Below the pieces are notes generated by a model. The model made no database searches, was not told the DNA's origin, and worked only from the letters and a program-made list of their open reading frames with translations. Source: Heterodontus francisci (taxonomy: Eukaryota). From it: DNA of 64,000 bases. The translations under genes were made by a program, and so were the position numbers. The number at the start of each line of letters is the position of its first letter. The stretch's first letter is position 1. The stretch spans positions 26,798,262 through 26,862,261 of the forward strand of contig NC_090413.1 of NCBI RefSeq assembly GCF_036365525.1, written 5' to 3'. This document shows, in pieces, positions 18,201 through 55,600 of the stretch.

Positions 18201-21029
18201 ACCACCTCATCTCGTCCCACCACCCACCTCCCCCCAGCCTTTTCCCCATAGACCCACAAATTGTTTCTCTTCAAATAATTATCCAATTCGAGAATTTGGG
18301 ATTGTTCTTCTTAGAGTAGAGAGGATTGAGGGAAGACCTGAGCTGTTCAAAATTCCAAAGGAATTTGATAGAGCCAGTAGGAGAAAATGTTTCCTCTGGA
18401 AAGTGGGTCAATAACCAGAGGTCATAGATTTAAAATAATTGGCAAAAGAACTAGAGAGGAAATGAGGAGAAATATCCTCACATGGAGAATTGTTAAGATC
18501 TGGATCACACTATCTGAAAGACTAGAGGAAACAGATCCCATTGGACCTTTCAAAAGGACAACTGGACATGTACTTGAGAACAGGATGAATTTGCAGGGTT
18601 ATGGGGAAAAGCTGGGGTGTGGGATTAATTGGAGAGCTCGTCGGAAGAGCTAGCACAGGTTCAATGGGCTGAAGGATTCTAGGATCCTATGATAGGGTTA
18701 CCAAAGTTTTCCAGGTCTCAACCAGACAGATTTTCTTTAAGTAAGAGCATTATGGGTTACAGAACCAAGGCAGGTGGATGGAGCCTGGATACAGATCAGC
18801 CATGATCTAATAGATTGGCAGAAGAGGCTTGAGGGCCTGAATGACCTGGTCTTGTTCCTGTCTCGCTAACAATATGGCAGCTAAGGAGATAGGGATAGTG
18901 CGTTGTGGGGAAATGGCAGGGTGGTGAGGTGATTTGGATGGGCCCAGTGAGGTAGGTGAGGAGAAGGGTAGGAAGAGTCCCGGAGGATGGGATGTTGGAG
19001 TACAGCAGGGTGGAGGGGATGTTGGAGTGTGAGGGTGAGGGGCTGCTGGAGTGTGACAGGGTGGAGGGAATGTTAGTGTGTGACAGGGTGGAGGGGATGT
19101 TGGAGTGTCAGGGTGAGGGGATTTTGGAGTGTGACGGGGTGGAGGGAATGTTGGAGTGTGAGGGTGAGGGGCTGCTGGAGTGTGACAGGGTGGAGGGAAT
19201 GTTAGTGTGACAGGGTGAGGGGATGTTGGAGTGTGAGGATGAGGGGATGTTGGAGTGTGACAGGGTGGAGGGATGTTGGAGTGTGACAGGGTGGAGGGAT
19301 GTTGGAGTGTGACAGGGTGAGGGGATGTTGGAGTGTGAGGGTGAGGGGATGTTGGAGTGTGACAGGGTGAGGGGATGTTGGAGTGTGACAGGGTGAGGGG
19401 ATGTTGGAGTGTGACAGGGTGAGGGGATGTTGGAGTGTGAGGATGAGGGGATGTTGGAGTGTGAGGATGAGGGGATGTTGGAGTGTGACAGGGTGGAGGG
19501 GACATGGCAGAAGATGGGATTGGGGTTTGAGTACTTGAGGCTTCCTGTGCTGCTGATGCAATTCATTCAGAACCTAATACCCTTCAAGAGATAATGGGGC
19601 TGATTTCCCTCCCCCGGGATCTCAGTGTAAGTTTGATCCTGTGCTTTCCACAGGTGCCAACTTGATCCCAGCTGAACCTGGCCGTGTTTTTAATATCCAG
19701 CACTGAGTTGGAAGCACCTCAGAATCTGGACACGGCCAATAGCAAGGAGGGAATTTGTGCGCTATTTAAAGATGACATTACACTGGTTGCTGTCAGGAAA
19801 AGGAGTCAGGCCAATGTCCCAATGATTCCTTGTCCAGGTTTGCTTGGAGCAGTGTCCTGGAGATTAATCGTTAATTCCTGGAGATTCCAGGGCAATCCTA
19901 GAGGGTTGGTGAGTCTAGAATTAAGCCTGCCTGAGGGTCCATTACAGCTAATATAACATATTAAATATTTTACTTATTTAATTACTGATAATGTTCTTTT
20001 TCCATCCTTGTGCAGCATTTTGTTACCTTGGAAACTGAATCCAGGAGATTCTGGATTGGTCTAACTGATCACAACAGTGAGAATAAATGGCAATGGGTGG
20101 ATGGCACAGATTATGAGACAACACAAAAGTAAGTTCAGTCAAACAATACACAATGCAAGTGCCAGACATTGGCCATCTGAGTGACTTACAACACAGTCTG
20201 TACACCTGCCTTTACTTCATTAAAAATAAATGACTTAATGTAAAGACATTGTTTCCAATATCATCACTTTCAATATTACCGGAGCTGGATATTGTTGGAA
20301 ACAATTATTATTGTGTTATAAAGACGTGGAACCTTCCATAGAGACGAAGAACACTGATAGTGCGATTAAGAAAAAGGAATTCTGATGGAAATCCTCTCTA
20401 GCAACAAGTGTATTTATGTAGTGCCTTTGACATAGAAAAACATTTCAAGGCTCCTCACATGAGTGTTATCAAACAAACTTTGGCACTAAACCACGTAAGG
20501 AGATATTAGGACAGGTGACCAACAGCTTGGTCATAGAGGTAGGTTTTAAAGAATGTCTTAAAGGAGGAGGGAGAGGCGGAGAGGTTTAGGGAAGGAATTC
20601 CAGAGCTTCAGGTTAAGGCAGCTGAAGGCATGGCAGCCTATGATGGAGTAATCAAAATCAAGGATGCATAAGAGGCCAGTGTAGAGATAGGAGTGTAGAG
20701 ATCTCCTAGGGTTGTAAGGGTAAAGGAGGTGACAGAGATCGGGAGGGTCGAGACCATGGAGAGATTTGAAAACTAAAGGGAATCTTAATTGTTCTCCTGA
20801 CCATATGATTCACTCCTTAAAGAGATTACTAGTTTACCTGATGATGTCGCGGTGAATCCCCAGGATTGGATACAGTAATAACTAGGTTTCGTTCCTCAGA
20901 TTTTGGATGCCGGGAGAACCAAACAGTGTTGATGAAGGTTGCGTTCACCTCTGGATGAATGGAATGTGGAACGATGCTCCATGCTCGATGAAAGATTACT
21001 TCATCTGTGAAAAGGAGGCTCACCAATGA
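9125..21029 (+). CDS. Type II C-type lectin receptor B (CD209/CLEC4/CLEC10A/CLEC17A-like), 8 coding exons, 273 aa
   Basis: join(9125..9209,10652..10753,13446..13520,15471..15542,17049..17141,17849..18000,20016..20128,20900..21029) = 822 nt, all GT-AG and phase-consistent; cytoplasmic YENF, TM segment, neck, CRD with CP..W..F..SCYYFS, WIGL, EPN, WND. Confidence 0.88.
9540..9895 (-). mobile_element. L2-like LINE 3' fragment (family also at ~14800-15110+, 20400-20780-, 23327-23745-, 27060-27415-, 32555-33265+, 42718-43248-, 54277-54590-)
   Basis: Shared block caacaacttgcatttatatagcaccttt...gagaggtttagggagggaattccagagc recurring across the window; translations resemble the L2 ORF2 C-terminus (LWNSLP). 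Confidence 0.75.
10061..10475 (+). mobile_element. DeuSINE-type tRNA SINE (other copies ~21160-21435-, 24075-24527+, 30100-30375-, 32094-32490+, 56813-57250+, 59015-59430+, 61785-62060+, 62185-62392-)
   Basis: tRNA-like head (gtggctc...agtcagaaggttgtgagttca), central block gatgagacgttaaaccgaggcc...aaagatcccatggcact as recalled for the Deu domain, L2-like tail. Confidence 0.7.
10652..10753 (+). CDS. Lectin B exon 2 (transmembrane)
   Basis: DSRFKSHICGKGLMLLIFIVLSVFLILLITGVIK; donor gtaagt. Confidence 0.82.
11755..11909. mobile_element. Degraded palindromic Penelope-terminus derivative
   Basis: Left part matches 37760-37845 (aaatattgcggatgctg...aaatgctgg); right part is its degenerate reverse complement. 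Confidence 0.6.
11919..12509. mobile_element. GC-rich MITE-like element
   Basis: Imperfect TIRs GGCCAGAATTTT / AAAATTCCAGCC; abrupt GC/CpG-rich composition relative to the flanks. Confidence 0.5.
13446..13520 (+). CDS. Lectin B exon 3 (neck)
   Basis: CSEANGAVEEFQSQVQMQISQTMNN; phase 1-1; donor gtgagt. Confidence 0.7.
13599..13996. mobile_element. Partial LTR related to the solo LTR at 34107
   Basis: Starts TGTTAT and shares the motif order of 34107-34400 (tggccaatt, ttt..gagttaa/ggcttaa, tttatt). Confidence 0.4.
13997..14357 (-). mobile_element. Young V-domain tRNA SINE (HE1-like), full length
   Basis: Minus strand: GGGCGGCACAGTGGCGCAGTGG (A box), GGTTCAATTCC (B box), V-domain gggtttcctccgggtgctccggtttcctcccac, (CTAAA)n tail. 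Confidence 0.92.
14473..14799 (+). mobile_element. Internal RT fragment of RTE LINE
   Basis: [13 protein letters not shown]...FTYLGS; near-identical to ~51912-52238. Confidence 0.9.
15471..15542 (+). CDS. Lectin B exon 4 (neck)
   Basis: VSDKSELTELELRIRNEVTQMGAR; pyrimidine tract + tag acceptor; donor gtgagt. Confidence 0.78.
15553..16067 (-). mobile_element. CR1-type LINE 3' fragment with microsatellite tail
   Basis: ALERVQKRFTRMLPGL...SYEERL..LGLFSLE.RR.RGD; KFFTQRVV; (aagaaca)n tail. Confidence 0.9.
16855..16998. repeat. Imperfect (TG)n microsatellite
   Basis: Visible TG-rich run. Confidence 0.8.
17049..17141 (+). CDS. Lectin B exon 5 (neck)
   Basis: VLEELSRTKANLISTMSRKLEMLPEPGDLSE; phase 1-1; donor gtatgt. 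Confidence 0.75.
17184..17422 (+). mobile_element. 5'-truncated RTE LINE 3' end with 21-bp TSD
   Basis: Matches ~52770-53005; encodes [17 protein letters not shown]; flanked by GAGTATCTGTCGCAGCTTTTT at 17163-17183 and 17423-17443. Confidence 0.92.
17849..18000 (+). CDS. Lectin B exon 6 (CRD N-terminal part)
   Basis: ACQNLQCPHNWMYFNESCYYFSTKRASWNMSSLYCSLRGTHLLVINSIIEQ. Confidence 0.93.
18060..18690 (+). mobile_element. Old CR1 3' fragment with a nested antisense CR1 piece (~18129-18290)
   Basis: LERVQR.FTR...SY.ERL; RGHRFK translations. Confidence 0.7.
18985..19501. repeat. Second copy of the G-rich minisatellite, intron 6 of lectin B
   Basis: Same unit family as 1-1866, more degenerate at its 5' end. 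Confidence 0.95.
20016..20128 (+). CDS. Lectin B exon 7 (CRD, WIGL)
   Basis: HFVTLETESRRFWIGLTDHNSENKWQWVDGTDYETTQ; donor gtaagt. Confidence 0.93.
20900..21029 (+). CDS. Lectin B exon 8 (CRD, EPN/WND, stop)
   Basis: KFWMPGEPNSVDEGCVHLWMNGMWNDAPCSMKDYFICEKEAHQ*. Confidence 0.93.
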
Positions 21030-36500: not shown

Positions 36501-38602
36501 AGTCTGTCCCGTCCACTTTTGCCGAAGATCTTGTGAACCTCACGAAGGCAGCGTCGGGTGAACGGCTGAAGGCCCCTCCCTGGCATCGAGCGGTCAACCT
36601 ATCGTCTGCAGCAGGGAAACGCTTCATCAGTTTTGCAAAATACAGCAAATTTGGAGATGGTAATGTACTTTCTCCATTAACAGTGTAGCTCCCTTCTTAC
36701 CCTATCTCAGTCCGATTTACCTTTCTCTACTCTTGCCGAATCTCAGGCATTTCCCCCTTGCAAACCATTCCAGCTTACACATGCTTTCAACACTCCTGCA
36801 GTCAAGTGGAAGTAGATCCAATAGTAACTTTCAATTATATATATACTTGAAAATAAAGTTTGTGGGACTATGGGGAAAGAGCAGTAGAGTGGGGCTGATA
36901 GCTTAGTTTAGTTTAGTTTAGAGATACAGCACTGAAACAGGCCCTTCGGCCCAACGGGTCTGTGCTGACCATCAACCACCCATTTATACTAATCCTACAC
37001 TAATCCCAAATTCCTACCACATCCCGACCTGTCCCTAGATTCCCCTACCACCTACCTATACTAGGGACAATTTATAATGGCCAATTTACCTATCAACCTG
37101 CAAGTCTTTTGGCTTGTGGGAGGAAACCAGAGCACCCGGAGAAAACCCACGCAGACACAGGGAGAACTTTCAAACTCCACACAGGCAGTACCCGGAATCG
37201 AACCCGGGTCCCTGGAGCTGTGAGGCTGCGGTGCTAACCACTGCGCCACAGCTCTTTCAAAAGAGCTGGCACAGGTATATTTAGCATGGAAGTTATTATT
37301 GAATATGCTTCCATCACCCTTCCAGGCAGCGCATTCCAGATCACAACAACTCGCTGTGTAAAAAAAAATTCTCCTCCTCGCAACTCTGGTTCTTTTGCCA
37401 ACTACCAACCCTCCTGCCACCGGAAACAGTTATTCTCTATCTACTCTGTCAAAACCCCATGCAATTTTGAACATCTCTATTAAATGCCCCCTTAATCTTC
37501 TGAACACTAAGGAGGATAATTTCAGCTTCTTCACATAACTGAATGTAGGTGGGGAATATTTCAGCTGTTTTGACACTTTGGCTATTTTAATTCTGGCATT
37601 CCCTTTAAATTTTTGGGGCCCTAAGCCTAAACCTAATCCTTAGAGGATCATTAGGGGATGCAAGGAGGTATTGTGTGGATTTACAGCACAGTAACAGGCC
37701 ATTCAGCCCAACTGCTCCATGCTGGTGTTTATGCTCCACATGAGCTTCCTCCCATCCTAAAATAAAAGCAAAATACTGCGGATGCTGGAAATCTGAAACA
37801 AAAACAAGAAATGCTGGATTCACTCAGCAGGTCTGGCAGCATCTGTGGAAAGAGAAGCAGAGTTAACGTTTCGGGTCAGTGACCCTCCTTCCGAAGAAGG
37901 GTCACTGACCCAAAACGTTAACTCTGCTTCTCTTTCCACAGATGCTGCCAGACCTGCTGAGTGATTCCAGCATTTCTTGTTTTTGTTCCTCCCATCCTAC
38001 TTCATTTTGCCCTTTCTCCCTCATGTGTTTATCTGGCTTCCCCTTAAAAGCATCTACACTATTCATCTCAACTACTCCCTGTGGTAGCTAGTTCCACATT
38101 CTCACCACTCTCTGGTGAGGCTCTCCTGATTTCTGTATTGATTTGTTAATGACTATCTCACATTTATGGTCTAGATGGAATGGGTAGAGATGCTGTTGAT
38201 CACTGTTATATGTTCTTCTACATTGCAGATTTATACTCCGGCTGGGTGGCGAGCTTCTTTCAGAGTGACTTGTTGGTTGAGACGTGGCCAAATTCTGAGC
38301 ACACACTCCTGTCCAACTGCAGCATGAAGTACGCAGTGTACAACGTGAAGAAAGTTACATTCACCGCAAACATCAGCTTCAGCAGCCATGACGATCACTC
38401 AAAATGGTGCGTGACAAGCTCAGGCGGAGATGTTAAGTGGACGTGCATTGGGGATATCAACCGAGACCAGGCGCAGGAACACAGAGGAGGTGGAACTGTC
38501 TGCACCAATGATCCAGTTGTCTGGGATTCTTTCTTGAGCCTAGCTGCATCCTGCGAGATCTGCAACTGTCCTTGCAATGAGGAGCAAAGAAGGAATTTCT
38601 GA
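27482..38602 (+). CDS. DNASE2: Deoxyribonuclease II (lysosomal DNase II alpha), 6 coding exons, 362 aa
   Basis: join(27482..27594,29751..29916,31814..31889,33458..33619,36462..36659,38229..38602) = 1089 nt; signal peptide, SCYND.GQPVDWF..YKLP, YNDQ, GHTKG, GFWLVHSTP.FP, DHSKW, CIGDINR...Q..RGGGT.C. Confidence 0.95.
27713..27880 (-). mobile_element. 3' fragment of the Crack/Daphne-like LINE (others at ~3130-3222, 10785-10925, 26870-27055, 29360-29590, all -)
   Basis: Reverse-complement match to ~7700-7880. Confidence 0.85.
29751..29916 (+). CDS. DNASE2: DNase II coding exon 2
   Basis: FIIYKLPK...GAVGKTVQQFY...HQ. Confidence 0.93.
31050..31470 (-). mobile_element. CR1 3' fragment
   Basis: SRTRGHNFKIR..PFR..VRKQFFTQR..EIWNSLPQKAVEA. 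Confidence 0.8.
31814..31889 (+). CDS. DNASE2: DNase II coding exon 3 (first HxK motif)
   Basis: SDDVAYVLYNDQ...GHTK. Confidence 0.93.
33458..33619 (+). CDS. DNASE2: DNase II coding exon 4
   Basis: GVVLLDQKQGFWLVHSTPHFP...NGQSFLCVTY. Confidence 0.94.
34107..35069. mobile_element. Solo LTR (~963 bp) inserted in a CR1 3' fragment
   Basis: TGTTAC...GTAATA termini; 4-bp near-TSD GGTG/AGTG; host CR1 sequence (gagatgaagaggggtg|gaagaaggctcgtgtgg) rejoins across it. Confidence 0.7.
35988..36348 (+). mobile_element. Young V-domain tRNA SINE (HE1-like)
   Basis: A/B boxes, V domain, (CTAAA)n tail. Confidence 0.92.
36462..36659 (+). CDS. DNASE2: DNase II coding exon 5
   Basis: GTQLLYNNPRVY...SFAKYSKFGD; 198 nt, phase 1-1. 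Confidence 0.94.
36903..37249 (-). mobile_element. Young V-domain tRNA SINE (HE1-like)
   Basis: Reverse complement of the 35988-36348 family. Confidence 0.92.
37760..37985. mobile_element. Palindromic Penelope pLTR mini-element with 14-bp TSD
   Basis: Arms ~37797-37891 / 37893-37987; TTCCTCCCATCCTA at 37746-37759 and 37986-37999; sequence matches 22170-22270. Confidence 0.88.
38229..38602 (+). CDS. DNASE2: DNase II coding exon 6 (second HxK motif, stop)
   Basis: DLYSGWVA...DHSKWCV...CIGDINR...RGGGTVC. Confidence 0.95.
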
Positions 38603-41230
38603 GCTGGGGCTGGGATGGTGGTTTCAGGGTAAATGTGCACCGATTAGCTTTTCCTTTGCTTTTGCCAGTTTGGGTTTAAGAGCTTGTTTGTATATTAGTA
38701 CACAGAGAGCATGACAAATACTTATAGTCTGTTGGAATCCCATCCAGCGAGCTCAAGGTCATATCCAGATTTGGCCAAGGTTTGCCTCTAATGGACAATG
38801 GCCTTGATATTTTCTTTCAGATCCATATTTTGGATGAGATGTTAAACCGAGGCTTCATCTGCCCTCGAAGGTAGATGTAAAAATCTCATGGCACTATTCT
38901 GAAGAACAACTGAGGAAGGATATACATGCCATAGAGGGAGTGCAGTGGAGGTACACCAGACTGATTCCTGGGATGGTGGGATTGTCCTATGAGGAGAGCA
39001 TACGAACAGACCAATTAGGAGCAGGAGTAGGCCAATCGGCCCTTCGAGCCTGCTCTGCCATTCAATAAGTTCATGGTTGAACTGATTACTCCACATTTCC
39101 ACCTAACCCCAATAACCTTCCACCCCCTTGACTATCAAGAATCTATCTACCTCTGCCTTAAAAATATTCAAAGACTCTGCTTCCACTGCTTTTTGAGGAA
39201 GAGAATTCCAAAGACTCACGGCCCTCTGAGAGAAAAAATTTCTCCTCATCTCTGTCTTAAATGGGCAACCCCTTATTTTTAAACAGTGACCCTTAGTTCT
39301 AGATTCTCCCACAAGGGGAAACATCCTTTCCACATCCACCCTGTCAAGACCCCTCAGGATCTTATATGTTTCAATCAAGTCGCCTCTTACTCTTCTAAAT
39401 TCCAGCGAATACAAGCCTAGCCTGTCCAATCTTTCCTCATAAGGCAGCCCATCCATTCCAGGTATTAGTCTAGTAAACCTTCTCTGTACTGCCTCCAACG
39501 CATTTACATCCTTCCTTAAATAAGGACACCAGTACTGTACACAGTACTCCAGATGTGGTCCCACCAATGCCCTGTATAGCTGAAACATAACCTCCCTACT
39601 TTAGTGTTCAATTCCCCTCGCGATAAACAATAACATTCTATTAGCTTTCCTAATTACGTGCTGTACCTGCATATTAACCTTTTACGATTCATGCACTAGG
39701 ACACCCAGATTCCTCTGCATCTCAGAGCTCTGTAATCTCTCACCATTTAGATAATATGCTTCTTTTTTATTCTTCCTGTCAAAGTGGACAATTTCACACT
39801 TTCCCACATTATACTCCATTTGCCAGGTCTTTGCCCACTCACTTAACCTATCAATATCCCTTTGTATCCTCCTTATGTCGTCTTCACACGTTACTTTCCT
39901 ACCTATCTTTGCGTCATCAGCAAATTTAGCAACCATACCTTCAGTCCCTTCATCCAAGTCATTTATATAAATTGTAAAAAGTTGAGGCCCTGTGGCACTG
40001 AGAGATTGAAGAGAATTTGCCTGTATTCTCTGGTGTTTAGAAGAATGAGAGGCGATCTCATAGAAACTTACAAAATTCTTAAATGGAATGGAATTTTGGC
40101 ATTTATTGCGAAAGGAATAAAAGTAGGGAAGTATTGCTGCAACTTTACATGGCATTAGTGAGACTGCACCTGGAGTATTGCGTACAGTTTTGGTCCCCTT
40201 ACTTGAGGAGGGGTGTAGTTGTATTGGAGGCAATTCAGAGGAGGTTCCCTAGACTGATTTCAGAGATGAGGGGTTTGTCTTATGAAGAGAGATTGAGCAG
40301 TTTAGGCCTTTACTCACTTGAGTTTAGAGAGGAGATCTAATTGAGGTATTTAAGATGATTAACAAAGTAGACGTAGAGAGGATCTTTCCTCTTGTGGGGC
40401 AATCTAGAACGAGAGGTCATAGTTTTAGGATAAGGGGTAGCAGATTTAAAACAGAGATGAGGAGAAATTACTTCTCTCAAAGGGTCATGAGGCTATGGAA
40501 TTCACTACCCCAGAGTGCGGTGGATGCCGGGACATTGAGTAAATTTAAGGAGGAGATAGACAGATTTTTAATTAGAAATGGGTTGAAGGGTTATGGAGAA
40601 TGGGCAGGAAAGTAGAGTTGAGGCCGAGATGAGATCAGCCAGGCTCGAGGGGCTGAATTGCCTACTCCTGCTCCTAGTTCTTATGTTCTAAAGGGATAGA
40701 CAAGGTGGATGCAGGAAGGATGTTTCCCTTGGCTGTGGGGTCTAGAACCCAGGGGACACAATTTCCGAATAAAGGGCAAGCCATTTAGGACTGAGATGAG
40801 GAGCAACTTCTTCACTCAGAGAGTGGTGAATCTTTGGAATTCTCGGCCCCCGAGGGTGGTGGAAGCTCAGTCACTGAGTAAGTTCAAGACAGAGATCGAT
40901 AGATTTCTAGTTGCTAATGACATCAAGGGAAATGGGGATAGTGCGAGAATATGGCGTTGAGACAGATGATCAACCATGATCTAGAATGGCGCAGCAGGTT
41001 TGAAGGGTTGAATGGCCAGTCCTGCTCCTATGTTCTCCCCTGTGTCCTGGCCAACATGTATCCCTTAACCAAAATCACTAAAACAGATTATCCAGTCATT
41101 GCTGTTTGTGGGGGCTTGCTGTGCAGAAATTGGCTACTGCATTTACTACGTAACTACACTTTAAAAGTACTTCATTGGCTGTAAAGTGCTCTGGGATGCC
41201 TGAGGTTGTGAAAGGCGCTATATGAATGCA

Positions 41231-43329: not shown

Positions 43330-43562
43330 GGGGTGCTGCGCTGCCTTCCCTGCAGAGGGCGCTAGCCTAGCAACGCGGGGGGGGGGGGGCTGCTGGAGGA
43401 ACCTCTCAACCTAACTCGCTAGGCGGCAATGATTGACGTTAGAGATTGACCAATAGTGAGTCGCGCTGAGGGACGGAGTAACCAGTAGAGAGCTGGGAGG
43501 CGGGGCCCGGGCTGGCCCAGCAGGTTGGGTTGCGCGGCGGCGGAGTTGAGGAGAAGATGGCG
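43330..43562 (+). promoter_or_regulatory. CpG-rich housekeeping-type promoter / 5' UTR of DCAF15
   Basis: Local CpG enrichment, CCAAT (43450-43454), GC box GGGAGGCGGGG (~43495), YY1-like AAGATGGCG overlapping the ATG. Confidence 0.75.
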
Positions 43563-43631
43563 CCGAGTTGGAACAAGCGTCCGAGTGGGAGGAAGAAAAG
43601 CAACGTCCTGAGGAGCTTATACCGGCTGAAG
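43557..43631 (+). CDS. DCAF15: DCAF15 exon 1
   Basis: [25 protein letters not shown]|gtact. Confidence 0.88.
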
Positions 43632-46600
43632 GTACTGGAATGGGCGGCAGGCCAGGCTCAGTTAACATCTGACACTTACTGTGCCTGCACAGAGTGAAAT
43701 CCCCCTAAATAAAGCTGTAAAACTGGGATTGACTCAGTGGGGAAAATAACTCCAAATTCTCCCTCTCTCCCACAGCAACATCTCAAAAATATAATAATCA
43801 ACCACTTTCCATTAACCAGGACAGCTTAAAATGTTTTATTTTGAATGCAATATACCGCAAATCCCCTAAAGCTGCCAGGAGCTATTGAGCTGTGGTTACC
43901 ATCATCATATATTTATTTGTTTAAAGTGGTACAATTCATTTCAATTGCAAAATGAGACCTCAAAAGCTGGATAAATGAAAGATTGTCTTTTACGCTTGCT
44001 TTCAGCATCCTCTTCAATGTGTGTGTGTTTTAACCTTGCCCAGATTGAAATTGCACGTTAATAATCAGTGCTTGCCAGTGAAATTCCTTTGTTTGCTGGT
44101 TTTTGCACCACTCTTCTCCCCAACTTTCTTCTGAAAAGGATTCGCCCCCAATGACAGTCAGGAGTTTTCGCGTTGGTAGTGTTGTTAAATGTTGTGCACT
44201 GGGATTTTTTTTTTCCCTCCCCTTTTTAAAAAAAAAAAGCCCTGTGTGATATCTGGGTGTTCCAGGAGCACCCATTTCCTGCCCTCTTCACAAGGTTCAA
44301 TGTGTTTGGTAATCCAAAATCTGAAGACTGATTGCCTCGTCTGTCAAGTGGTTCACTGGCTCAATTCACTACCACGTTGACCAGTTGAGATGAATAGTAT
44401 CGATGCATTGAAGGGGAAGCTGGATAAACATAAGGGAGAACGGAATAGAAGGATATGTTGATAGGCTGAGACGAGGCTCGTATGTATCATGAAAGCCAGC
44501 ATAGACCACTTGGGCCGAATAGCCTGTTTCTGTGCTGTAGACGCGATGTAATGTTACAGAAGGGTAAACCTTCTTGTGATTGTGCCAAGGAAAGCTGGCA
44601 GTTAACTATTGTGTGTCGTTACTAGAAAATGCCCTAAATATTTCCTGCATTGTCTGCTTTATAAGCAGCAGTTTTATTCCACAACGTAGGGGAGGATACC
44701 AGGAAAGATTGTTGTCCAGTAACACTTCAGTATTCATCTCATCCTTGTAAGTTTGGTCAGTTGGTGGCAATCTGGATCAGAAAGTTTAATGGGACCGAGT
44801 CATACTACACAACTTGAGTTGGGGGTAACATTCCTTTACGGTACAAAGGGAGCGCTGCATTGTTGGAGCTGCCATATTTCGCGTGAGATGTTGAACCGAG
44901 GTCCTGCCTACTAGTTCAGGTTGATCTTAAAGTATAAGAAGAAGCTGCTGTGACCAACATTTTCCCTTAATCAGTACCACCAAATAGTAGTTTGTTTAGT
45001 TATTTGCATCACTGCTGTTTGTGGGATGTTGCTGATGCAGAATGGCCACTGTGTTTGTCTTTACAAGTCACTACATTTCAAAATGGAATTCACTGTATGA
45101 TTTACTTTCAGAATGATAACATGACACAACATACAATTATTAAGAACTAAATAGTACAGTGATTTAGATACCAGTGGTTAAATATGTGAAAATCTCTTCT
45201 ATAAAGCTGGTATATAAAATGAGTTTGGGTAGTTTCAGTGTAGTTCCTAATGAAACTGAAACTACAACAAAAAAAATTGTTCCTAATTTGGCAGTAATTG
45301 GTACAGTCACTGGGAGTGAATGGTGTGAAAATGGGAAATGTGCCATGCGCCAACAGTTTGGCAGGGGGCACTTTTAGTGTTGGGTTTTAAGTGCTCCCTC
45401 TTTTTTTAAGTTGCTTTTAAGAGCAGGGGTGTTATTTCAACCAACATCACTAGCAGTTTATGTGCTCATTATCACATTGCTATTTACGGGAGTTTGCGGT
45501 GCACAAATTGGCTGCCGTGTTTCCTACATTACAACAGTGACTGCACTTCAAAAGTACTTTATTGGCTGTAAAGCACTTTGAGGCATCCTGAAGTTGTGAA
45601 AGGCACTATAGGAATGCAAGTTTGTCTTTATCTTTTATTTTCCCATCCTCTGTCTTGGCTGGGTCAACAACATGCTCTCGATTCTCTCTCGGTTTAAGTT
45701 TCTAATATGTGTAGAATTTTCTGGAATTTTAGCTTTCTGATGAAAAAATTGGTAAAAATTTAGCAAACCTTTCCAGACATATTTGGGAGTGAGGAGTCAA
45801 TGATTAAAATGCCATTCATTGGGAGGTGAAACACTCCAAGCTTTCTGATATTCTGTTAAATTTATCACAGGCTTGTTATGATTCTTAATCCAGGTTTTAA
45901 TGGACATGGCAAGTTAAGGAGGAACTTGTTTAACAACTGGGAATTGTATATTGTGACACCAACTTTGCATCAGGGAATGATTCTTGAAATTAAATGGATA
46001 CTCTAGGGGCTTTTACTCCCTCTAATTAAATTCTTTAATTAAAAGCCGAGCTTAGAAGTTAGCACCATTCAGATTACCCTGTTGAGATCTTTCTGGGCAT
46101 TGCTGTTTTCTCATGCTTGTTCTGGAACAGAAGAGTGTTATGATGAGGAGTGGGTGGACAGTTGCTTCCTAGTCCCAACTTAGCTGAATGGTGAGTCAAG
46201 TTTTCGATTATCGCAGGCCTTTCCACAGTTTGTCATTACATGGTTGGGTCAGGTGTAGGGCTGTGTGGAGATCAGGGCAATGTAAAGTATCAAGCCATTC
46301 GAACGCAGTCCTTGACCAAACAATAACCCGTTGTCACGTGATTCTTATTTTTAAGGCTACAAACGGCTGTTCCTTTTTCTCTGTTTTACAGATAACTGGC
46401 CAGTTCTCGCACCGAATGTTCCAAAATTTGCCTCCCATTCTTTGCGTCCCCCTGAAGAACATTGTGGATGATGATTTTTTACTAGCTGGGTACGTAAACC
46501 ATTTCCTGAGTTAACAGATATTTTAATTCCTACCTTTTTATGTTGAGAAGAATTAGGTTCATTCATTGATTTAACTTGAGAATGTTAGGTCCCAAGACCT

Positions 46601-49600
46601 TGCCGTTATTCTGTGGGATACTGGTGAATTTGACTGCAGCATTGCACGATTCTACAGAGGCTATAATTCTTAATTTTAAACAGGCTCATGCTAGTTCAAA
46701 AATAGAGAGAGGATTTTTCAGACAAATGTATTGTGTTTATGTTTTAGAATCCCACAGCATAATGTATAGGCCCAGACAACATATAGCGAATACGAACATA
46801 CGAATTAGGAGCAGGAGTAGGCCACTCAGCCTTTCGAGCCTGCTCCGCGATTCAATAAGTCCATGGCTGAACTGATAACTCCACATTTCCACCTACCCAC
46901 GATAACCTTCCACCCCCTTGCTTATCAAGAATCGATCTACCTCTGCCGTAAAAATATTCAAAGACTCTGCTTCCACCGCCTTTTAAGGAAGAGAATTCCA
47001 AAGACTCTCAACCCTCTGAGAGAAAAAATTGCTCCTGATCTCTGTTTTAAATGGGCGACCCCTTATTTTTAAACAGTGACCCCTAGTTCGAGATTCTCCC
47101 ACAAGGGGAGACATCTTTTCCACACCCACCCTGTCAAGACCCCTCGGACTGCGTTCGAATGGCTTGATACTTTACATTGCCCTGATCTCCACACATATGT
47201 TTCAATCAGGTCGCCTGTTACTCTTCTAAATTCCAGCGGATACAAGCCTAACCTGTCCAACCTTTCCTCATAAGACAGCCCATCCATTCCAAATATTAGT
47301 CTAGAAAACCTTCTCTGTACTGCTTCCAACGCATCTACATCCTTCCTTAAATAAGGACACCAGTACTGTACACAGTACTCCAGATGTGGTCTCACCAATG
47401 CCCTGTATAGCTGAAGCATAACCTCCCTACTTTTGTATTCAATTCCCCTCGCGATAAGCGATAACATTCTATTAGCTTTCCTAATTACTTGCTGTACCTG
47501 CATACAATCTTTTGCGATTCATGCACTAGACGCCCAGATCCCTCTGCATCTCAGAGCTCTGCAATCTCTCACCGTTTAGATAATATGCTTCTATTTTATT
47601 GTTCCTGCCAAGTGGACAATTTCCCACTTTCCCACATTATACTGCATTTGCCAGGTCTTTGCCCACATAATCAATCTATAATCCCTTTGTAGCCCCCTTA
47701 TGTCGTCTTCACAAGTTACTTTCCTACCTATCTTTGTGTCATCAGCAAATTTAGCAACCATACCTTCGGTCCCTTCATCTAGGTCATTTATATAAATTGT
47801 AAAAAGTTGAGGCCCTGTGGCACACCACTTGTTACATTTTACCAACCAGAAAATGACCCATTTATGCCTACTCTCTCTTTCCTGTTAGCTAGCCAATCTT
47901 CTATGTTACCCCATACACCATGAGCTTTTATTTTCTGCAATAACCTTTGATGTGGCACCTTATCAAATGCCTTATGGAAATCTAAGTACAATAGAGATGC
48001 AGTGGCAGACATTTAAGGGGATATTTCAATACACAGAATAGATGCATTTCAACGAGAAAGAATAATTCCAAGGGTGGGACTTGCCATCCGTGGTTAACTA
48101 AAACAGTTAAAGATAGTATCAAACTTAAAGAAAAAGCACAAAAATGGGAGGCAGATCAGAAGATTGGGCAGAATATAAAAAACAGCAAAGAATGACTAAA
48201 AGATTGATAAAGGAGGTAAAATTAGAGTACAAGAGAAAGCTAGCTAGAAATATAAAGACAGATAGTAAGAGTTTCTGTAAATACTTAAAAAAGAAAACAG
48301 TTAACAAAGTGAACGTAGGTCCTATAGAATGAGAGTCTGGGGAATTAATAATGGATAATAAGGAGATGGCAGACGAATTGAACAGATATTTTGCATCGGT
48401 CTTCACTATTGAGGATACAAGTAACATCTCAGTATTATCTGTAAGTCAGGAAATGGAAGGGAAGGAGGAAGTCAAGAAAATTACAATCACCAGGGATGTT
48501 TAGTTTAGAGATACAGCACTGAAACAGGCCCTTCGGCCCACCGAGTCTGTGCCGACCATCAACCACCCATTTATACTAATCCTACACTAATTCCATATTC
48601 CTAAAACATCACCACCTGTCCCTATATTTCCCTACCACCTACCTATACTAGGGGCAATTTATAATGGCCAATTAACCTATCAACCAGCAAGTCTTTGGCA
48701 TGTGGGAGGAAACCAGAGCACCCGGAGGAAACCCACACAGACACAGGGAGAACTTGCAAACTCCACACAGGCAGTACCCAGAATTGAACCCGGGTCGCTG
48801 GAGCTGTGAGGCTGCGGTGCTAACTACTGTGCCGCCCATTTGTACTGAACAAATTGTTGGAGCTGCGGGCTGACAAGTCCCCGGGTTGTGATGGACTTCA
48901 TCCAAGGGTGTTAAAAAAGTGGCTAGTGAGATAGTTACTGTGCTAGTTTTAATTTTGCAAAATTCCTTAGATTCAGGGAAGGTTCCGTTAGATTGGAAAA
49001 TAGCGAATGTAACTCCTTTATTCAAAAAGGGAGGGAGACAGAAAACAGGAAACTACAGGCCAGTTAGCTTAACATCTGTCTTAGGGAATATGTTAGAAAC
49101 TATTATTAAAGACGTTATAGCAGGGCATTTAGAAAAATTCAAGGTAATCAGGCAGAGTCAACATGGTTTTGTGAAAGGGAAATCATTTTGAACCAATTTA
49201 TTGGAGTTCTTTGAGGGAGTTACATGTGCAGTGGATAAAGGAGAACCGATGGATGTATTGTACTTGGATTTCCAGAAGGCATTTGATAAGGTGGCACATC
49301 AAAGGTTATTGCAGAAAATAAAACTCATGGTGTAGGGGGTAACATATTGGCTTGGATAGAAGACTGGCTAGCTAACAGGAAAGAGAGAGTGGGCATAAAT
49401 GGTCATTTTCTGGTTGGCAAGATGTAACAAGTGGTGTGCCACAGGGATCTGTGCTGGGGCCTCAACTTTTTACAATTTATATAAATGACTTAGATGAAGG
49501 GACTGAAGGTATGGTTGCAAAATTTGCTTATGATACAAAGATAGGTAGGAAAGTAACTTGTGAAGACGACATAAGGGGCTACAAAGGAATATAGATAGAT

Positions 49601-52600
49601 TACGTGAGTGGGCAAAGACCTGGCAAATGGAGTATAATGTGGGAAAGTGAGAAATTGTCCACTTTGGCAGGAAGAATAAAAAAGAAGCATATTATCGAAA
49701 CGGTGAGAGATTGCAGAGCTCTGAGATGCAAGGGATCTGGGTGTCCTAGTGCACGAATCGCAAAAGGTTAGTATGCAGGTACAGCACATAATTAGGAAAA
49801 CTAATAGAATGTTATCATTTATCGCGAGGGGAATTGAATACAAAGTAGGGAGGTTATACTTCAGCTATACAGGGCATTGGTGAGACCACATCTGGAGTAC
49901 TGTGTACAGTATGGTCTCCTTATTTAAGGAAGGTTATAAATGTGTTAGAGGCAGTACAGAGAAGGTTTACTAGACTAATACTACAGAGCAAGACTACACC
50001 TTCTTCTGGCAGGGTAGGGATCCAGAAGAACCAAGACAGCATGGAGTGGGTTCCGCCATCAGAAACTCTTTGCTCAGCATAATAGAGCCACCTTCAAATG
50101 GCTCGGAATGCATACTGTCCATCCGACTGCTCACCACCTCTGGTCCAGTACACCTACTCAGCATCTATGCTCCAATACTCTGCTCCCCACCTGTAGCTAA
50201 AGACCAGTTCTACGAGGGACTCCATAATATCATTAGTATTATACCGAACATCTGTTCCTGCTGGGGGACTTTAATACCAGGGTTGGGGCCGACCATGACT
50301 CATGGCCCTCTTGCCTTGGGCGCTATGGCATTGGAAGGATGAATGAGAATGGACAGCGACTGCTTGAGTTGTGTACCTATCACAACCTCTGCATCACCAA
50401 CTCGTTCTTTCATACTAAACCCTGTCACCAGGTTTCTTGGAGGCACCCAAGATCACGTCGTTGGCACCAGCTGGAGCTCATCGTCACAAGGCGAGCCTCT
50501 TTAAACAGCGTTCAAATCACACGCAGCTTCCACAGTGCGGACTGCGACACCGACCACTCCCTGGTGTGCAGCAAGGTTAGACTCAAACCAAAGAAGCTGC
50601 CTCACTCTAAGCAGAAGGGCAACCCGCGCATCAACACCAGCAGAATATCTTATCCACAGCTGTTACATAAGTTTCTAAATTCACTTGAAAATGCCCTTCA
50701 AAACACTCCTACAGGGGATGCAGAGACCACGTGGGCCCACATCAGAGACGCCATCTATGACTCAGCAATGACCACCTATGGCAAATGTGTGAAGCAGAAT
50801 GCAGACTGGTTTCAATCTCACTGAAGAGCCGGAACCTGTCATAGCCGCTAAGCGCATTGCACTGTTGAACTACAAGAAAGCGCCCAGCGAGTTAACATCC
50901 GTAGCACTTAAAGCCGCCAGAAACGCTGCAAAAAGAACAGCCAGGCATTGCGCAAATGACTACTGGCAACACCTATGCAGTCATATTCAGCTGGCTTCCG
51001 ACACCGGAAACATCAGAGGAATGTATGATGGCATTAAGAGAGCTTTTGGGCCAACCATCAAGAAGTTCGCCCCCCCCCCCCCCCAAATCTAAATTAGGGG
51101 ACACAATCACTGACCGCAAGCAAATGGACCACTACCTAGAACTGTACTCCAGGGAAAATGTTGTCACTGAGACCGCCCTCAATGCAGCCCAGTCTGTGCC
51201 AGTCATGGATGATCTGGACGTACAGCCAACAAAATCGGAGCTCAGTGATGCCATTAATTCTATAGCCAGCGGAAAAGCCCCTGGGACGTACGGTATTACC
51301 CCTGAAATAATCGAGTGCCAAGCCTGCTATCCTTTCAGCACTCTACGAACTCCTTTGCCTGTGCTGGGACGAGGGAGCAGTACCACAGGACATGCGCGAT
51401 GCCAATATCACCACCCTCTATAAGAACAAGGGTGACCGCGGTGACTGCAACAACTACCGTGGAATCTCCATGCTCAGCATATTGGGGAACGTCTTCGCTC
51501 GAGTTGCTTTAAACAGGCTCCAGAAGCTGGCTGAGTGTGTCTACCCTGAGGCACAGTGTGGCTTTCGAGCAGAGAGATCCACCATTGACATGCTGTTCTC
51601 CCTTCGCCAGCTACAGGAGAAATTCCGCGAACAACAGATGCCCCTCTATGTTACTTTCATAGATCTCATCAAAGCCTTTGACCTCGTCAGCAGACGTGGT
51701 CTCTTCAGACCACTAGAAAAGATCGGATGTCCACCAAAGCTACTAAGTATCATCATCTCATTCCATGACAATATGAAAGGCGCAATTCAGCATAGCGGCA
51801 CCTCATCAGACCCCTTTCCTATCCTGAGTGGTGTGAAACAGGGCTGTGTTCTTGCATCTACACTGTTTGGGATCTTCTCACTGCTGCTCTCACACGCGTT
51901 CAAGTCTTCAGAAGAAGGAATTTTCCTCCACACAAGATCAGGTGGCAGGTTGTTCAACCTTGCCCGTCTAAGAGCAAAGACCAAAGTACGGAAAGTCCTC
52001 ATCAGAGAACTCCTCTTTGCTGACAATGCTGCATTAACATCCCACACTGAAGAGTGTCTGCAGAGACTCATCGACAGGATTGCGGCTGCCTGCAACGAAT
52101 TTGGCCTAACCATCAGCCTCAAGAAAATGAACATCATGGGACAAGACGTCAGAAATGCTCCAACCATCAATATCGGTGACCACGCTCTGGAAGTGGTTCA
52201 AGAGTTCACCTACCTAGGCTCAACTATCATCAGTAACCTGTCTCTCGATGCAGAAATCAACGAGCGCATGTAAAAGGCTTCCACTGCTATGTCCAGACTG
52301 GCCAAGAGAGTGTGGGAAAATGGAGCACTGATACAGAACACAAAAGTCCAAGTGTGTCAAGCCTGTGTCCTCAGTACCTTGCTCTATGGCAGCGAGGCCT
52401 GGACAATATATGTCAGCCAAGAGCGATGTCTCAATTCATTCCATCTTCGCTGCCTCTGGAGAATCCTTGGCATCAGGTGGCAGGACCATATCTCCAACAC
52501 AGAAGTCCTCGAGAGGGCCAACATCCCCAGCATATACACCCTACTGAGCCAGCGGCGCTTGAGATGGCTTGGCCATGTGAGCCGCATGGAAGATGGCAGG

Positions 52601-55600
52601 ATCCCCAAGGACACATTGTACAGCGAACACGTCACTGGTATCAGACGCACCGGCTGTCCATGTCTCTGCTTTAAAAACGTCTGCAGACGCGACATGAAGT
52701 CCTGTGACATTGATCACAAGTCGTGGGAGTCAGTTGCCAGTGACATCCAGAGCTGGCGGGCAACCATAATGGCGGGGCTAAAGTGTGGCGAGTCGAAGAG
52801 ACTTAGCAGTTGGCAGGAAAAAAGACAACCGCAAGGGGAGAGCCAACTGTGTAACAGCCCTGACAACCAATTTTATCTGCAGCACCCGTGGAAGAGTCTG
52901 TCACTCTAGAATTGGCCTTTATAGCCACTCCAGGCGCTGCTTCACAAACCACTGACCACCTCTAGGCACTTACCCATTGTCTCTCGAGACAAGGAGGCCA
53001 AAGAAGAAGACTGGGAATGGGCAGGCTGTCTTACGAGGAAAGATTGGACAGGCTAGGCTTGTATCGACTGGAATTAAGATGAGTAAGAGGCGACTTGATT
53101 GAAACATCTAAGATCTTGAGGGATCTTGACAGGGTGGGTGTGGAAAAGATGTTTCCCTTTGTGGGAGAATCTCGAACTAGGGGTCACTGTTTAAAAATAA
53201 GGGGTCGCCCACTTAAAACAGAGATCAGGAGCAATTTTTTCTCTGAGGGTTGAGAGTCTTTGGAATTCTCTTCCTTAAAAGGCGGTTGAAGCAGAGTCTT
53301 TGAATATTTTGAAGGTGGAGGTAGATAGATTCTTGATAAGCCAGGGGGTGGAAGATTATCAGGGGTAGGTGCAAATGTGGAGTAATCAGTTCAGCCATGA
53401 ACTTATTGAATGGTGGAGAAGGCTCGATGGGCCGAATGGCCTACTCCTGCTCCTAATTTGTATGTTCGTAATTCAACTCAGTTATTCTTGATGTATAAAT
53501 GTTTGATTGAAATGCAGAGCTGAGCTGTTTGCTTGTGGCTCAGAGAATTTAGATAATGGGTAGTTAGGAACAGGAGGAGACCATTCAGTCCCTTGAGCCT
53601 ATTCCACCGCTCAGTTGGATCAAGGCAGACCTGGTCAAGCAAACCACGCAGATCGGGAAGATGCTAGTTTCTATTTGGGTTCTTTAGTCTGAGCTGAGTC
53701 AGCTGGCCAGCAGTACGGAAGCTGCAGTAGGGCTCAGTTCCCCTGGGTAGGGAGAGAGAAATTATTCAGTGCTCCCTTTCCTAATGCACTCTGCAATGAC
53801 TACTGCCCACCCCCCCCCACCCCCCATCCAACAGCACCCCCCCCTGCACGCGCACACAATACAGTGATGACCTGACGAGACTTGTCATGGTTCACAAGTA
53901 AGCATGAGTGGAGAAAATGCAGCCTTGCTTTCATTTTTACTTTCTGTTGTTTAATCTCTCTCTCTCTTTCTCTCTCCCTTTTCCCTCCCCCTGCCACAGC
54001 CACATATTCCTTGGCTTTACAAAATGCGGTAGGTATGTGCTATCCTACACCAGGGATGTGCCAGAGCAGGATATTGACGAATTACCGTACTACGTGTATT
54101 ATCTGTACTGGTGGAAGTTCAACATTCATGACAAGTTGAAAAAGGTGCGTACCAAAGATTTCCTTGTGAATAGAGAGCGTTCCGAATTCCCTTGCTGAAC
54201 TCAAATAAATCCTTGGATGGGCATCGCCCCTTTTTTGTCTGCCTTTTGGTATTATGTTCTGTCAGTTTTAGTTTCTCAACAACAACTTGTATTTATATAG
54301 CACCTTTACTGTAGTAAAAGTTCCCAAGGCACTTCACAGGAGTGATTATTAAACAAAATTTCACATAAAATATTACGACAGATGATGAAAAGCTCTGTCA
54401 AAAAGATGGGTTTTAACGAGTGTCTTAAAGAAGGAGAGAGAGAGGGGTTTAGGGAGGGAATTCCAGAGCTTAGGGTCCAGGCAGCTGAGGGCACGGCCGC
54501 CAGTGGTGGAGTAATGGGGATGCACAAGTTGCCGAATATGGAGGAGCTCAGATATCTTGAAGGGCTGGAGGAGGTTACAGAGACACGGAGTGAAAGAAAT
54601 TGGCATCTTGCCTCTGATTCCTTGCGCAATATCTTGTGGAGGAGGCTAGCCTGCTCGTGTGCACCTCATAACTCTTACACAGGGCAGTAGAGGCAGGTAC
54701 CAGGTGGACTAGGCATCATCCTGCCAGGAAATAGATATAGGATTGTTGACCTAAGGGACAGAGTAACCTCCAGCTCCCTCTCCCTACCCCTCTCTCTCAT
54801 GCACAGACACACATCACATACACACAAAAATATACTAGCTATACTTAAACTACATATTCATTTTTAGGAGGATATTCATATTCTGAATTACTGTTCTATA
54901 CAAGAAAAACAAATTTTTAAAGAAATCTTTTTTGTTGATCTTTAGGTGAGACAAGTGCACCTTTTCAAAGATCAGGAAGTGTACAGCGACTTGTATCTAA
55001 CAGTGTGTGAATGGCCAAGTGATCCCTCAAAGCTTATTGTGTTTGGGTTCAAGTAAGTATTCAAAGGAACAGGTGGAGGCCATCCAGCTTGTCCCGCCAT
55101 TGAGTTAGATCCTGGCTGACCTGCATTTTAACTCCATCTATCCGCCTTGTTATTGTATCCCTTGATACCCTTGCTAAACAGAAAACTCTCAATTTCTGTT
55201 TTTAAATTTTCAGTTAACCCTCCACTCCCCCCCCCACCCCCACCTCAGTCTCAATCTCAATAGCTTTTTGGGGAAAGAGTTCCAGAGTTCTACCTTTTGT
55301 GTGAAGACATGCTTCCTGACATCACCCCTGAAGTAGCTCTAATTTTAAGGTAATGCCTTCTTGTTCTGGATCCCCACCACCAGAGGAAATAGGTAGATAG
55401 AAAGAAACTATCAAATTCTTTTAATCATCTTAAACCTGATCATTTTGATCAATTAGATCTCCTCAATCTTTTTTCCAGCCTAGTCTGTGCAACCTTTCCT
55501 CTTAATTTAACGCTTTTAGCCACAGTATCATTCTGGTGAATCTGCGCTGCACCCCCTCTAAGGCCGATATGTCCTTCCTGAGATACTGTGCCCTGAACTG

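Follow-up and report, generated by a model that had tools for sequence, protein, structure and literature searches.

How did an exact inverted copy of 50 nucleotides of DCAF15 intron 1 come to lie inside a LINE in intron 2, and could the two complementary segments, which enclose exon 2, affect splicing of the gene? An earlier note on this locus had proposed a recent repair scar, citing polymerase theta-mediated end joining and replication template switching as processes that leave such insertions. We followed up this proposal in the window, i.e. the whole stretch of 64,000 nucleotides, and in sequencing runs mapped to it. The following features are referred to below.

46262..46311, + strand: donor 50-mer, unique DCAF15 intron 1 sequence; 5′ arm of a possible pre-mRNA stem
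47146..47195, - strand: inverted templated copy of the donor, in LINE copy B, with loss of 9 nt; 3′ arm
46975..47145, - strand: C-like tract of copy B, ending at the insertion and matching the neighbouring copy C; probable ectopic conversion
46791..47993, - strand: LINE copy B, 5′-truncated, 3′ end at 46791, antisense within intron 2
47989..53470, + strand: LINE copy C, sense within intron 2, head-to-head with copy B
48498-48833: SINE interrupting copy C
49981-53013: second LINE interrupting copy C
53118..53286, + strand: part of copy C matching the tract 46975-47145
39001..39998, - strand: LINE copy A, sister copy with the empty site at 39356-39364
43557..43631, + strand: DCAF15 exon 1, coding part, 75 nt
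46392..46489, + strand: DCAF15 exon 2, 98 nt, within the stem loop
54000..54144, + strand: DCAF15 exon 3, 145 nt

Copies B and C overlap by 5 nt in their head-to-head arrangement (loose ends at 47989 and 47993), and we infer that 47989-48497 belongs to copy C. We take the family of copy B to be CR1-like, and the second LINE inside copy C is presumably RTE-like; the RVT_1 matches in copies B and C are weak and below the Pfam cut-off. The identity of the gene is based on its later exons and not on the first ones: of four exons scanned, two, both later exons, match the Pfam family DCAF15_WD40 above the cut-off, and one later exon matches human DCAF15 in the PDB with an E value of 2e-28.

The inverted copy and its empty site

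Positions 47146-47195 are identical to the reverse complement of 46262-46311 at 50 of 50 positions, and the match cannot be extended in either direction; by chance, about 1e-21 such matches would be expected in 64 kb. Judged against the sister copies A and C, the insertion replaces 9 nt of copy B, which in copy A read AGGATCTTA. Within the window the 50-mer hardly recurs: an 18-mer of it, allowing up to three mismatches, hit both arms only (0.01 expected), and a single one of its 12-mers occurs elsewhere in the window. It is likewise absent from the reads of the LINE family, since 626 reads of run X22 with 219 different starts jump over 47146-47194, 433 of them carrying AGGATCTT in between. 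X22 comprises raw reads of another sample and has zero depth on the unique flanks, so that it does not represent a second individual at this locus. Taken together, the exact copy and the family reads support the central claim of the earlier note, a locally templated inverted insertion by template switching that is absent from the family.

The proposed geometry was borne out as well. The first arm ends 80 nt upstream of the acceptor of the 98-nt exon 2, the second arm starts 656 nt past its donor, and the loop comprises 834 nt. The GGA microhomology named in the earlier note fared less well: GGA is common to the lost 9-mer, but the preceding A is absent, so that it is not flush with the junction. 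Hence, the left junction shows no flush microhomology (AGGA would result only if a separate loss of 1 nt is assumed), and the right junction comprises one shared A.

Read support was sought in four of the 24 runs (X1, X5, X20 and X22), none of them from relatives. In the DNA run X1, which may be the source sample of the window and whose contigs hide zygosity, contigs break exactly at 46311/46282 with an overlap of 30 nt, which is the fork expected from the junction 47145|47146. In contrast, at 46262, the position at which a fork from the second junction would be expected, the contig continues without a break among the 24 of 123,370 pieces listed; the reads thus support one junction indirectly and leave the other without a fork. 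The depth of the donor bin in X1 (14.2, versus 10.5 and 11.3 in the adjacent bins) indicates a single-copy sequence. An excess of about 190 depth letters in this bin could represent a junction contig at half depth, but neighbouring bins show such excesses too, and we drew no conclusion on zygosity from it. The RAD runs X23 and X24 were set aside: of six enzyme sites checked, just one, the EcoRI site at 46993, is close by, at a distance of about 150 nt from the junction. An assembly or library artefact, or a 50-mer residing within a dispersed repeat, would be in keeping with the indirect read support at one junction only, with the possible identity of X1 with the source sample and with the lack of depth on the unique flanks in X22. 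Nevertheless, the contig fork exactly at the arm end, the single-copy depth of the donor, the family reads without the insert and the lack of a further copy in the window make such an origin very improbable.

A C-like tract adjoins the insertion

The tract of about 170 nt directly left of the 50-mer (46975-47145), which the earlier note had overlooked, matches the inverted copy C. With tract limits that were chosen after the data were seen, copies B and C differ at 4 of 169 positions within the tract versus 71 of 950 elsewhere (21 of 184 to the left and 50 of 766 to the right; Fisher P 0.012). A run test on 107 informative sites likewise indicated clustering for the pair B-C (P 0.003-0.007, uncorrected for three labels), whereas the corresponding tests for A-B and A-C were not significant (P 0.57-0.79). 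Moreover, when majority letters were taken from the best 40 of 194 sites, copy C was found to share seven of the eight listed non-majority alleles of B within the tract, as compared to two of 24 outside (P 8e-5). Between the last shared allele and the junction there are 20 nt, a closeness with a chance probability of 0.04-0.10, and inside the tract B and C differ by four substitutions and a 2-nt gap.

In the family reads the shared alleles are present at 3-8%, one at 21%, and they are not commoner than the private alleles of B (Mann-Whitney P 0.26). Given this rarity, a subfamily carrying all seven would account for at most about 3% of the mapped reads. The clustering of shared derived alleles, within limits set post hoc, which a subfamily does not readily explain, corresponds to what is expected of ectopic gene conversion, and copies B and C have probably undergone such a conversion here. 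Copy C is mildly favoured as the conversion donor (2.5 to 1). On the other hand, B has a 13-nt deletion and one allele in common with copy A, which makes it a mosaic, and local conversion or mixing of subfamilies may be common here. The comparison covers three young copies (A, B and C); a metagenome scan with a 23-nt pattern of the family gave no matches and was uninformative.

A compound template switch as the preferred origin

Along the + strand, 46975-47145 resembles the reverse complement of C, followed by 50 nt that are the reverse complement of intron 1 and then by B, which resumes 9 nt further along its own lineage. Both the C-like tract and the 50-mer were copied from the + strand. For the 50-mer, the edges are sharp, the return point lies 9 nt past the departure, and the order of the switch is 3-2-1-4, as this notation is defined in PMC5453318.

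From the arrangement of these pieces we favour one DNA-level template-switch event after insertion of the LINE, in which C was copied, then intron 1, before rejoining; we rate it the best single account, at slightly short of even chances, and its product is probably a neutral scar. During repair or replication, a single growing + strand would have switched template twice. The process may have begun with a break or a stalled fork close to 47145, whereupon the left 3′ end would invade copy C, its homologous neighbour in inverted orientation at a distance of 6 kb, and acquire C alleles (ectopic conversion, aborted SDSA). The strand would then dissociate and, with at most 2-4 nt of pairing, fold back at 46311 onto the + strand, either its own or the lagging one, copy 50 nt of intron 1 and be joined to the right end via a single common base, 9 nt being lost. 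In worms, failed SDSA intermediates are known to undergo end joining with templated inserts (PMC8654963). Polymerase theta, which the earlier note had invoked, is not indicated, considering the microhomology of 0-1 nt and a template 835 nt away; at this distance the donor does not flank the break as expected for theta or SD-MMEJ, although PMC7407515, whose wording is 'flanking', gives no distance cut-off for it.

Age of the scar

The designation of the scar as recent could not be upheld. No mismatch in 50 positions bounds divergence only below 2.9% per arm, a limit comparable to the age of copy B itself (private changes from 22/1153 to 26/973). At the rate of the epaulette shark, assuming that it applies, the probability that a 50-mer stays perfect over a million generations is 0.93; thus, in a slowly mutating genome its perfection does not date the event as recent. 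Over the 219 nt of tract and insert, one change falls on the B side, as compared to 4-6 expected if they were as old as B (P 0.02-0.08; for the insert alone P 0.06-0.15), a test weakened by the fact that the 'private' changes of B may partly derive from its source element. The absence of changes in the insert (0/50) is compatible with 4/169 in the tract (P 0.31). If the two are linked, the scar is probably no younger than the tract, with its 4 differences in 169 positions (95% range 0.6-5.9%).

Rival origins

The adjacency of tract and insert would also be expected if an older insertion merely halted a later conversion. Accordingly, we considered two separate events, namely a lone local template switch for the 50-mer, by fork fold-back or synthesis-dependent end joining, and an independent B-C conversion or subfamily mosaic for the tract, its edge being placed at the insertion by a heterology stop or by chance. 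A lone switch was the view of the earlier note, whose local templated switch is supported but which missed the adjoining tract. Two events explain the adjacency without an event comprising two jumps, and they agree with the derived features that B shares with A elsewhere and with the weakly resolved direction of the conversion. In addition, the lone 3-2-1-4 and its mirror type constitute 31% of the high-confidence human-chimp template switches (PMC5453318). However, this reading requires two rare events within 220 nt, it has to accommodate a microhomology of 0-1 nt, and an edge set by heterology would make the insert older than the tract, yet the insert has accumulated no change in 50 nt (P at most 0.31). 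We consider it possible, though rather unlikely.

Alternatively, reverse transcriptase may have hopped during integration of B, from its own RNA to C, to intron 1 and back to its own RNA, the C template being the homologous part of C in nascent DCAF15 pre-mRNA, RNA of another LINE or local DNA. The first cDNA strand would be the + strand of B, and the two foreign pieces run antisense to the pre-mRNA and succeed each other in its 3′-to-5′ order (C 53286-53118, then 46311-46262), as a hopping reverse transcriptase would produce; a single hopping DNA strand would, however, equally account for the shared strand. B and C adjoin head-to-head with their 5-nt overlap, the unchanged insert taken alone is compatible with the age of B (P 0.06-0.15), and templated insertions of L1 as well as two-template insertions are known (10.1101/2024.08.27.596794, PMC11702581 and PMC13174262). 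In contrast, the remainder of B appears older than tract and insert together (P 0.01-0.08), and an in-register return in mid-element, 9 nt on, would better fit two retained DNA ends. Moreover, the donor lies 479 nt from the 3′ end of B (46790), whereas the typical L1 template lies within 15 bp of the site (10.1101/2024.08.27.596794). This origin appears quite unlikely. That a LINE reverse transcriptase copied two distant pre-mRNA pieces of an active host gene, returned in register and wrote a stem across exon 2 is more improbable still, and in conjunction with a function of the stem as a poison-skip rheostat of DCAF15 it is hardly to be expected, although hopping on host pre-mRNA, if true, would raise the significance of the locus. 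The compound switch at the DNA level is retained as the preferred reading.

Possible effect on splicing

As the earlier note had anticipated, the arms are predicted to form a perfect 50-bp duplex across exon 2 (-98.7 kcal/mol; the local MFE fold contains 49 of the 50 pairs), and skipping of exon 2 would shift the frame, resulting in a stop at codon 36, 112 nt upstream of the exon 3-4 junction. We asked whether looping-out of exon 2 by the stem could be frequent enough to reduce DCAF15 via frameshift and nonsense-mediated decay. Apart from its predicted stability and the position of its arms, which lie 80 nt and 656 nt away from the exon, the stem is the sole strong match in inverted orientation that introns 1 and 2 share, and it can already form when transcription is still 2 kb short of copy C. 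In seven reporters described in PMC13019944, deletion of one inverted Alu decreased skipping by about 1 to >40 PSI points.

Conversely, the arms leave the splice signals uncovered, and predicted accessibility is hardly altered with the insert (branch region 0.47 vs 0.40, tract 0.39 vs 0.30, 5′ splice site 0.27 vs 0.23). The second arm, moreover, lies within the 1.2-kb intra-intron duplex of B and C (-758 and -1140 kcal/mol). Exon 2 is present in abundant contigs of both RNA-like carrier runs, X5 and X20, which are taken as RNA by guess only, with a bin depth of 196 and 60, respectively, versus 0-4.7 in the flanking intron bins. Exon 1 is almost without depth in the RNA runs and exon 3 is outside the mapped stretch, so that the joint of exons 1 and 3 is not visible; neither a skip joint nor a back-splice joint (46489-to-46392) is among the 15 of 348 joints listed. 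On balance, such a lowering of DCAF15 is unlikely, and a measurable splicing effect of the stem is likewise rather unlikely. RNA editing gave no signal in X5 and X20, where A>G and T>C counts resemble those of the DNA runs and stem mostly from other family copies.

Masking of the branch point was also considered. A branch-like motif at 46310-46316 touches the first arm, but an AG at 46354-46355 is interposed between this motif and the acceptor, and under the AG-exclusion rule masking is unlikely. Another branch-point candidate is located at -48 to -50 from the acceptor.

The earlier suggestion of a circRNA is weak, given the length of exon 2 and the lack of the back-splice joint among the joints listed. 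A circle of 98 nt, and hence a circRNA from exon 2, is highly unlikely: ZKSCAN1 exons of at most 400 nt circularised poorly, although a 360-nt EPHB4 circle formed (Liang and Wilusz, PMC4201285), and 98 nt falls well short of the lengths for which circles were obtained there.

Comparison with known systems

Inverted Alu pairs cause exon skipping (TBXT, via PMC13019944) or circles (PMC4201285) by means of complementary arms in both flanking introns, as are present here. In contrast to these pairs, the arms at this locus are 50 nt of unique sequence derived from a copying error, the exon comprises 98 nt, and the pairing is a computed one. If skipping occurred, the locus would parallel the TBXT case without involving Alu elements: one copying error would have turned unique sequence into a stem that regulates splicing of a gene for a ubiquitin-ligase receptor.

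Templated insertions of L1 and chimeric insertions arising in target-primed reverse transcription (10.1101/2024.08.27.596794, PMC11702581, PMC13174262) likewise contain local non-LINE sequence inside a LINE in an orientation compatible with cDNA; the present insert differs by its mid-element position, the in-register return, a donor 479 nt away and an apparently younger age than the LINE. Class 2 templated sequence insertion polymorphisms (Onozawa and Aplan, PMC5110952) resemble it as DNA patches without target-site duplication or poly(A) and with loss at the site, yet they have a distant donor, whereas the donor here is local. MMBIR/FoSTeS, aborted-SDSA end joining and SD-MMEJ/TMEJ (PMC7407515, PMC8654963, PMC11724301) share with this locus the use of several templates per junction, a small deletion, minimal microhomology and inverted fold-back copies. 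Typical inserts of these processes are, however, shorter (5-34 bp in the yeast study) and derived from the break flanks, as compared to 50 nt with a microhomology of 0-1 nt.

Four-point template switches (Loytynoja and Goldman 2017, PMC5453318; Walker et al. 2021, PMC7954356) similarly create a local reverse-complement fragment from the opposite strand, so that a perfect inverted repeat arises where no similarity existed before, and here the reverse complement of nearby sequence explains the whole cluster of changes relative to the ancestral 9-mer. Their fragments have a median of 12 and a maximum of 128, compared with 50 nt and a jump of 835 nt at this locus, and the model describes short-range single switches, whereas a probable conversion from a repeat 6 kb away precedes the present insert in the preferred reading. 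Most likely, the locus represents one more template-switch scar of this known class, whose anatomy is well resolved because sister repeats supply the empty site and reveal that the insert is joined to a tract of probable conversion. It offers an example, arisen naturally in the germline, of a single junction that combines homologous with microhomology-level switching.

Sequence relations and uniqueness of the insert

Positions 47146-47195 in DCAF15 intron 2 are the exact reverse complement of 46262-46311 in intron 1 (50/50, extendable on neither side). The earlier note had described this copy as an insertion in place of 9 nt within a LINE copy, and this description stands: the 9-nt stretch is found at the corresponding site in both sister copies.

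Features of the locus
46791-47993, minus strand: LINE copy B, 5′-truncated, carrying the insert (arm 2)
39001-39998: LINE copy A, sister copy with the 9-nt stretch
to 53470, plus strand: LINE copy C, sister copy with the 9-nt stretch
43557-43631, 46392-46489, 54000-54144, 54946-55052: DCAF15 exons, open frame, GT-AG ends

Two of the four later exons scanned match DCAF15_WD40, and one later exon matches human DCAF15 (E 2e-28). The LINE copies, which we take to be CR1, gave RVT_1 matches below the Pfam cut-off in two of four stretches of B and C, and a second LINE interrupting C has a strong one. This 3-kb LINE (49981-53013) and a young SINE (48498-48833) are nested within C in intron 2. B and C lie head-to-head with a 5-nt overlap (47989-47993), which may mean that a single break received two LINE RNAs. 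Together B and C make up an inverted repeat of 1.2 kb (46791-53470), a likely dsRNA and editing substrate.

A 50-nt inverted match has a chance expectation of about 1e-21. The window is rich in repeats and contains other exact matches of at least 50 nt (16 of 157 maximal matches listed when the minisatellite is left aside), but most of them sit within longer family alignments, whereas the flanks of the inverted match are unrelated and the donor surroundings have no other match within the window. Separately, 37797-37987 is a near-perfect repeat palindrome (95-nt arms, 97% complementary, 1 nt apart) resembling a fold-back duplication. A 26-nt minisatellite and its flank occur twice, at a distance of 17.5 kb (1-2140, 72 copies; 18982-19775, 20 copies), with a 167-nt exact match between the two (1968-2134 and 19603-19769). 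In addition, a 90-nt repeat fragment and, 1.7 kb away, the end of a longer copy have 59 nt exactly in common in direct orientation (3137-3195 and 4912-4970); this is perhaps a further locally templated copy, or simply the mark of a young family.

Four of the 24 listed runs were compared with 43420-48100 at 90% likeness. Among the family reads of X22, a raw-read run of another sample, 626 jump across 47146-47194 and 735 show clipping at 47145; thus, the LINE family lacks the insert. Depth in X22 is zero on the unique flanks of the insert. In X1, a DNA run assembled to contigs, the donor bin is at single-copy depth, so at 90% likeness the 50-mer is not a dispersed repeat. Neither run bears out the earlier concern that it might occur in many repeats, and an artefact or a dispersed repeat is a very remote explanation. 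Unique X1 contigs (45593-46311 and 46282-46817) break exactly where the arm ends, as they would fork if the reads contain the junction 47145/47146; X1 may be the source sample. The other junction should give a fork at 46262, but no break was seen there; that branch may have been lost by contig simplification. Indirect read support, as called for earlier, is given for the first junction and not for the second. Taken together, the inverted copy is real and its class is already known.

Junctions

At the left junction B ends with CCCTC and the insert begins with GGA. The GGA microhomology proposed earlier is not flush: AGGA is present in the family and in the donor, and its A is missing in B, so that flush microhomology would require the loss of one further base. 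A few bases upstream there is a shared GTCAAG hexamer, and one A is shared at the right junction. The shortest description of the change is 49 nt for 8 with one base in common. These features are compatible with several pathways and single out none. The inverted repeat also brackets exon 2, and inversion of the spacer (46312-47145) would flip the exon; 31-mer contigs cannot separate its two orientations. A second small complex change in B (47666-47681) resembles a synthesis-dependent end-joining scar: in place of the family sequence there is a stretch that contains a direct repeat of 6 nt and has lost 3 nt.

A C-like tract adjoins the insert

The 40 best-supported of 194 differences were used, 32 of which lie within B. 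Eight of these fall in 46985-47125, seven being common to C, as compared with 2 of the remaining 24 (Fisher P 8e-5). B and C mismatch at 4/169 positions in 46975-47145, limits set after the data were seen, versus 21/184 on the left side and 50/766 on the right side (P 0.012). Over 107 informative sites, a run test that omitted the misaligned 47660-47685 and was uncorrected for three labels gave P 0.003-0.007 for B=C, as against 0.57-0.79 for A-B and A-C. The alleles shared with C are as rare in family reads as the private alleles of B, so a linked subfamily would make up at most ~3%. The pattern suggests that B and C, as inverted neighbours, underwent ectopic conversion, with the direction C to B favoured by only 2.5 to 1. 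A 13-nt deletion between CCC repeats (47815, 39990) and one allele (47358) unite A and B and are absent from C and many family reads; B is thus a mosaic, which tempers the conversion reading, and these features are a subfamily mark or a local conversion.

The predicted stem and exon 2 splicing

Pairing of the arms amounts to -98.7 kcal/mol, with 49/50 pairs in the local MFE fold, and no other strong inverted match links intron 1 with intron 2. The splice signals lie outside the stem, and their predicted accessibility is barely altered relative to a control lacking the insert. Arm 2 is a bulge in the far stronger intron-2 B:C duplex (-758 and -1140 kcal/mol), whose partner is transcribed 2-6 kb later; the two structures can coexist.

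As the earlier note had predicted, skipping of exon 2 would shift the frame: the computed exon 1-3 product would meet a stop at codon 36, which lies 112 nt upstream of the junction of exons 3 and 4, so that decay of the transcript is expected. In X5 and X20, runs from the X1 sample that are RNA by guess only, the exon 2 bin has a depth of 196 and 60, compared with 0-4.7 in flanking intron bins, which puts exon 2 in spliced contigs of high abundance; their depth is flat and gives no measure of inclusion. Among the joints listed (15 of 348), there was no exon 1-2 or back-splice joint. Exon 1 is almost without depth in both runs (0 and 1.15), in contrast to the ~100-350 of the contigs that contain exon 2. 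This is most simply read as 5′ drop-off, and a different first exon may lie outside the compared stretch, as exon 3 does.

Deletion of one inverted Alu cut skipping by ~1 to >40 points in the seven reporters described in PMC13019944, which cites TBXT as a related precedent. For the 50-bp stem, we consider a measurable splicing effect unlikely. The suggested circRNA fares no better: according to PMC4201285, circles can be driven by repeats of 30-40 nt, but ZKSCAN1 exons no longer than 400 nt gave poor circularisation, which makes a 98-nt circle unlikely.

Age and origin

B carries 22/1153 to 26/973 private substitutions. A perfect 50-mer as old as B would have P 0.06-0.15, so its perfection alone leaves room for capture at integration. 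Tract and insert together show one B-side change in 219 nt versus 4-6 expected (P 0.02-0.08) and four pairwise changes versus 8-12 expected (P 0.01-0.08), favouring a putative post-integration event unless the private changes of B were inherited from its source. If insert and tract are linked, the insert must be at least as old as the tract (0.6-5.9% pairwise). Assuming that the epaulette shark rate of 7e-10 per base per generation (PMC10587355) applies, the chance that a perfect 50-mer persists for a million generations is 0.93; the view that the scar is recent is thus unsupported.

The tract ends at the insert, and both are reverse complements of plus-strand sequence. We tentatively rate a single event, with one growing plus strand changing template twice, at a little short of an even chance. 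The sequence relations are observed, and the steps, which we infer, would be as follows: the strand invades C, comes off it, folds back to 46311, copies 50 nt from there, and its new end is joined to the right end. That tract and insert arose separately is somewhat unlikely; an older insert would itself halt a later conversion, which calls for caution on the shared edge. Reverse-transcriptase hopping during LINE integration has L1 precedents (10.1101/2024.08.27.596794, PMC11702581, PMC13174262), but their templates, as described, typically lie within 15 bp, and we regard hopping as quite improbable here.

Among the titles listed for DCAF15 exon 2 (12 of 63), with most subscription papers outside the search, none concerned this locus; within the same limits, none of those listed for conversion together with templated insertions at junctions of retrotransposons (15 of 44) concerned a compound junction of this kind. 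This junction and the possible stem around exon 2 are still of interest.

In the four-point model, the insert has the switch order 3-2-1-4, and such switches create new inverted repeats without prior similarity (PMC5453318); template-switch lengths have a median of 12 and a maximum of 128 in PMC7954356. As to a single event as outlined above, PMC8654963 describes, for worms, patchwork inserts as well as end joining that acts on failed SDSA intermediates; PMC11724301 describes inverted inserts arising by fold-back in yeast, and PMC5110952 repair patches in people. Multi-switch MMBIR and SD-MMEJ are reviewed in PMC7407515.
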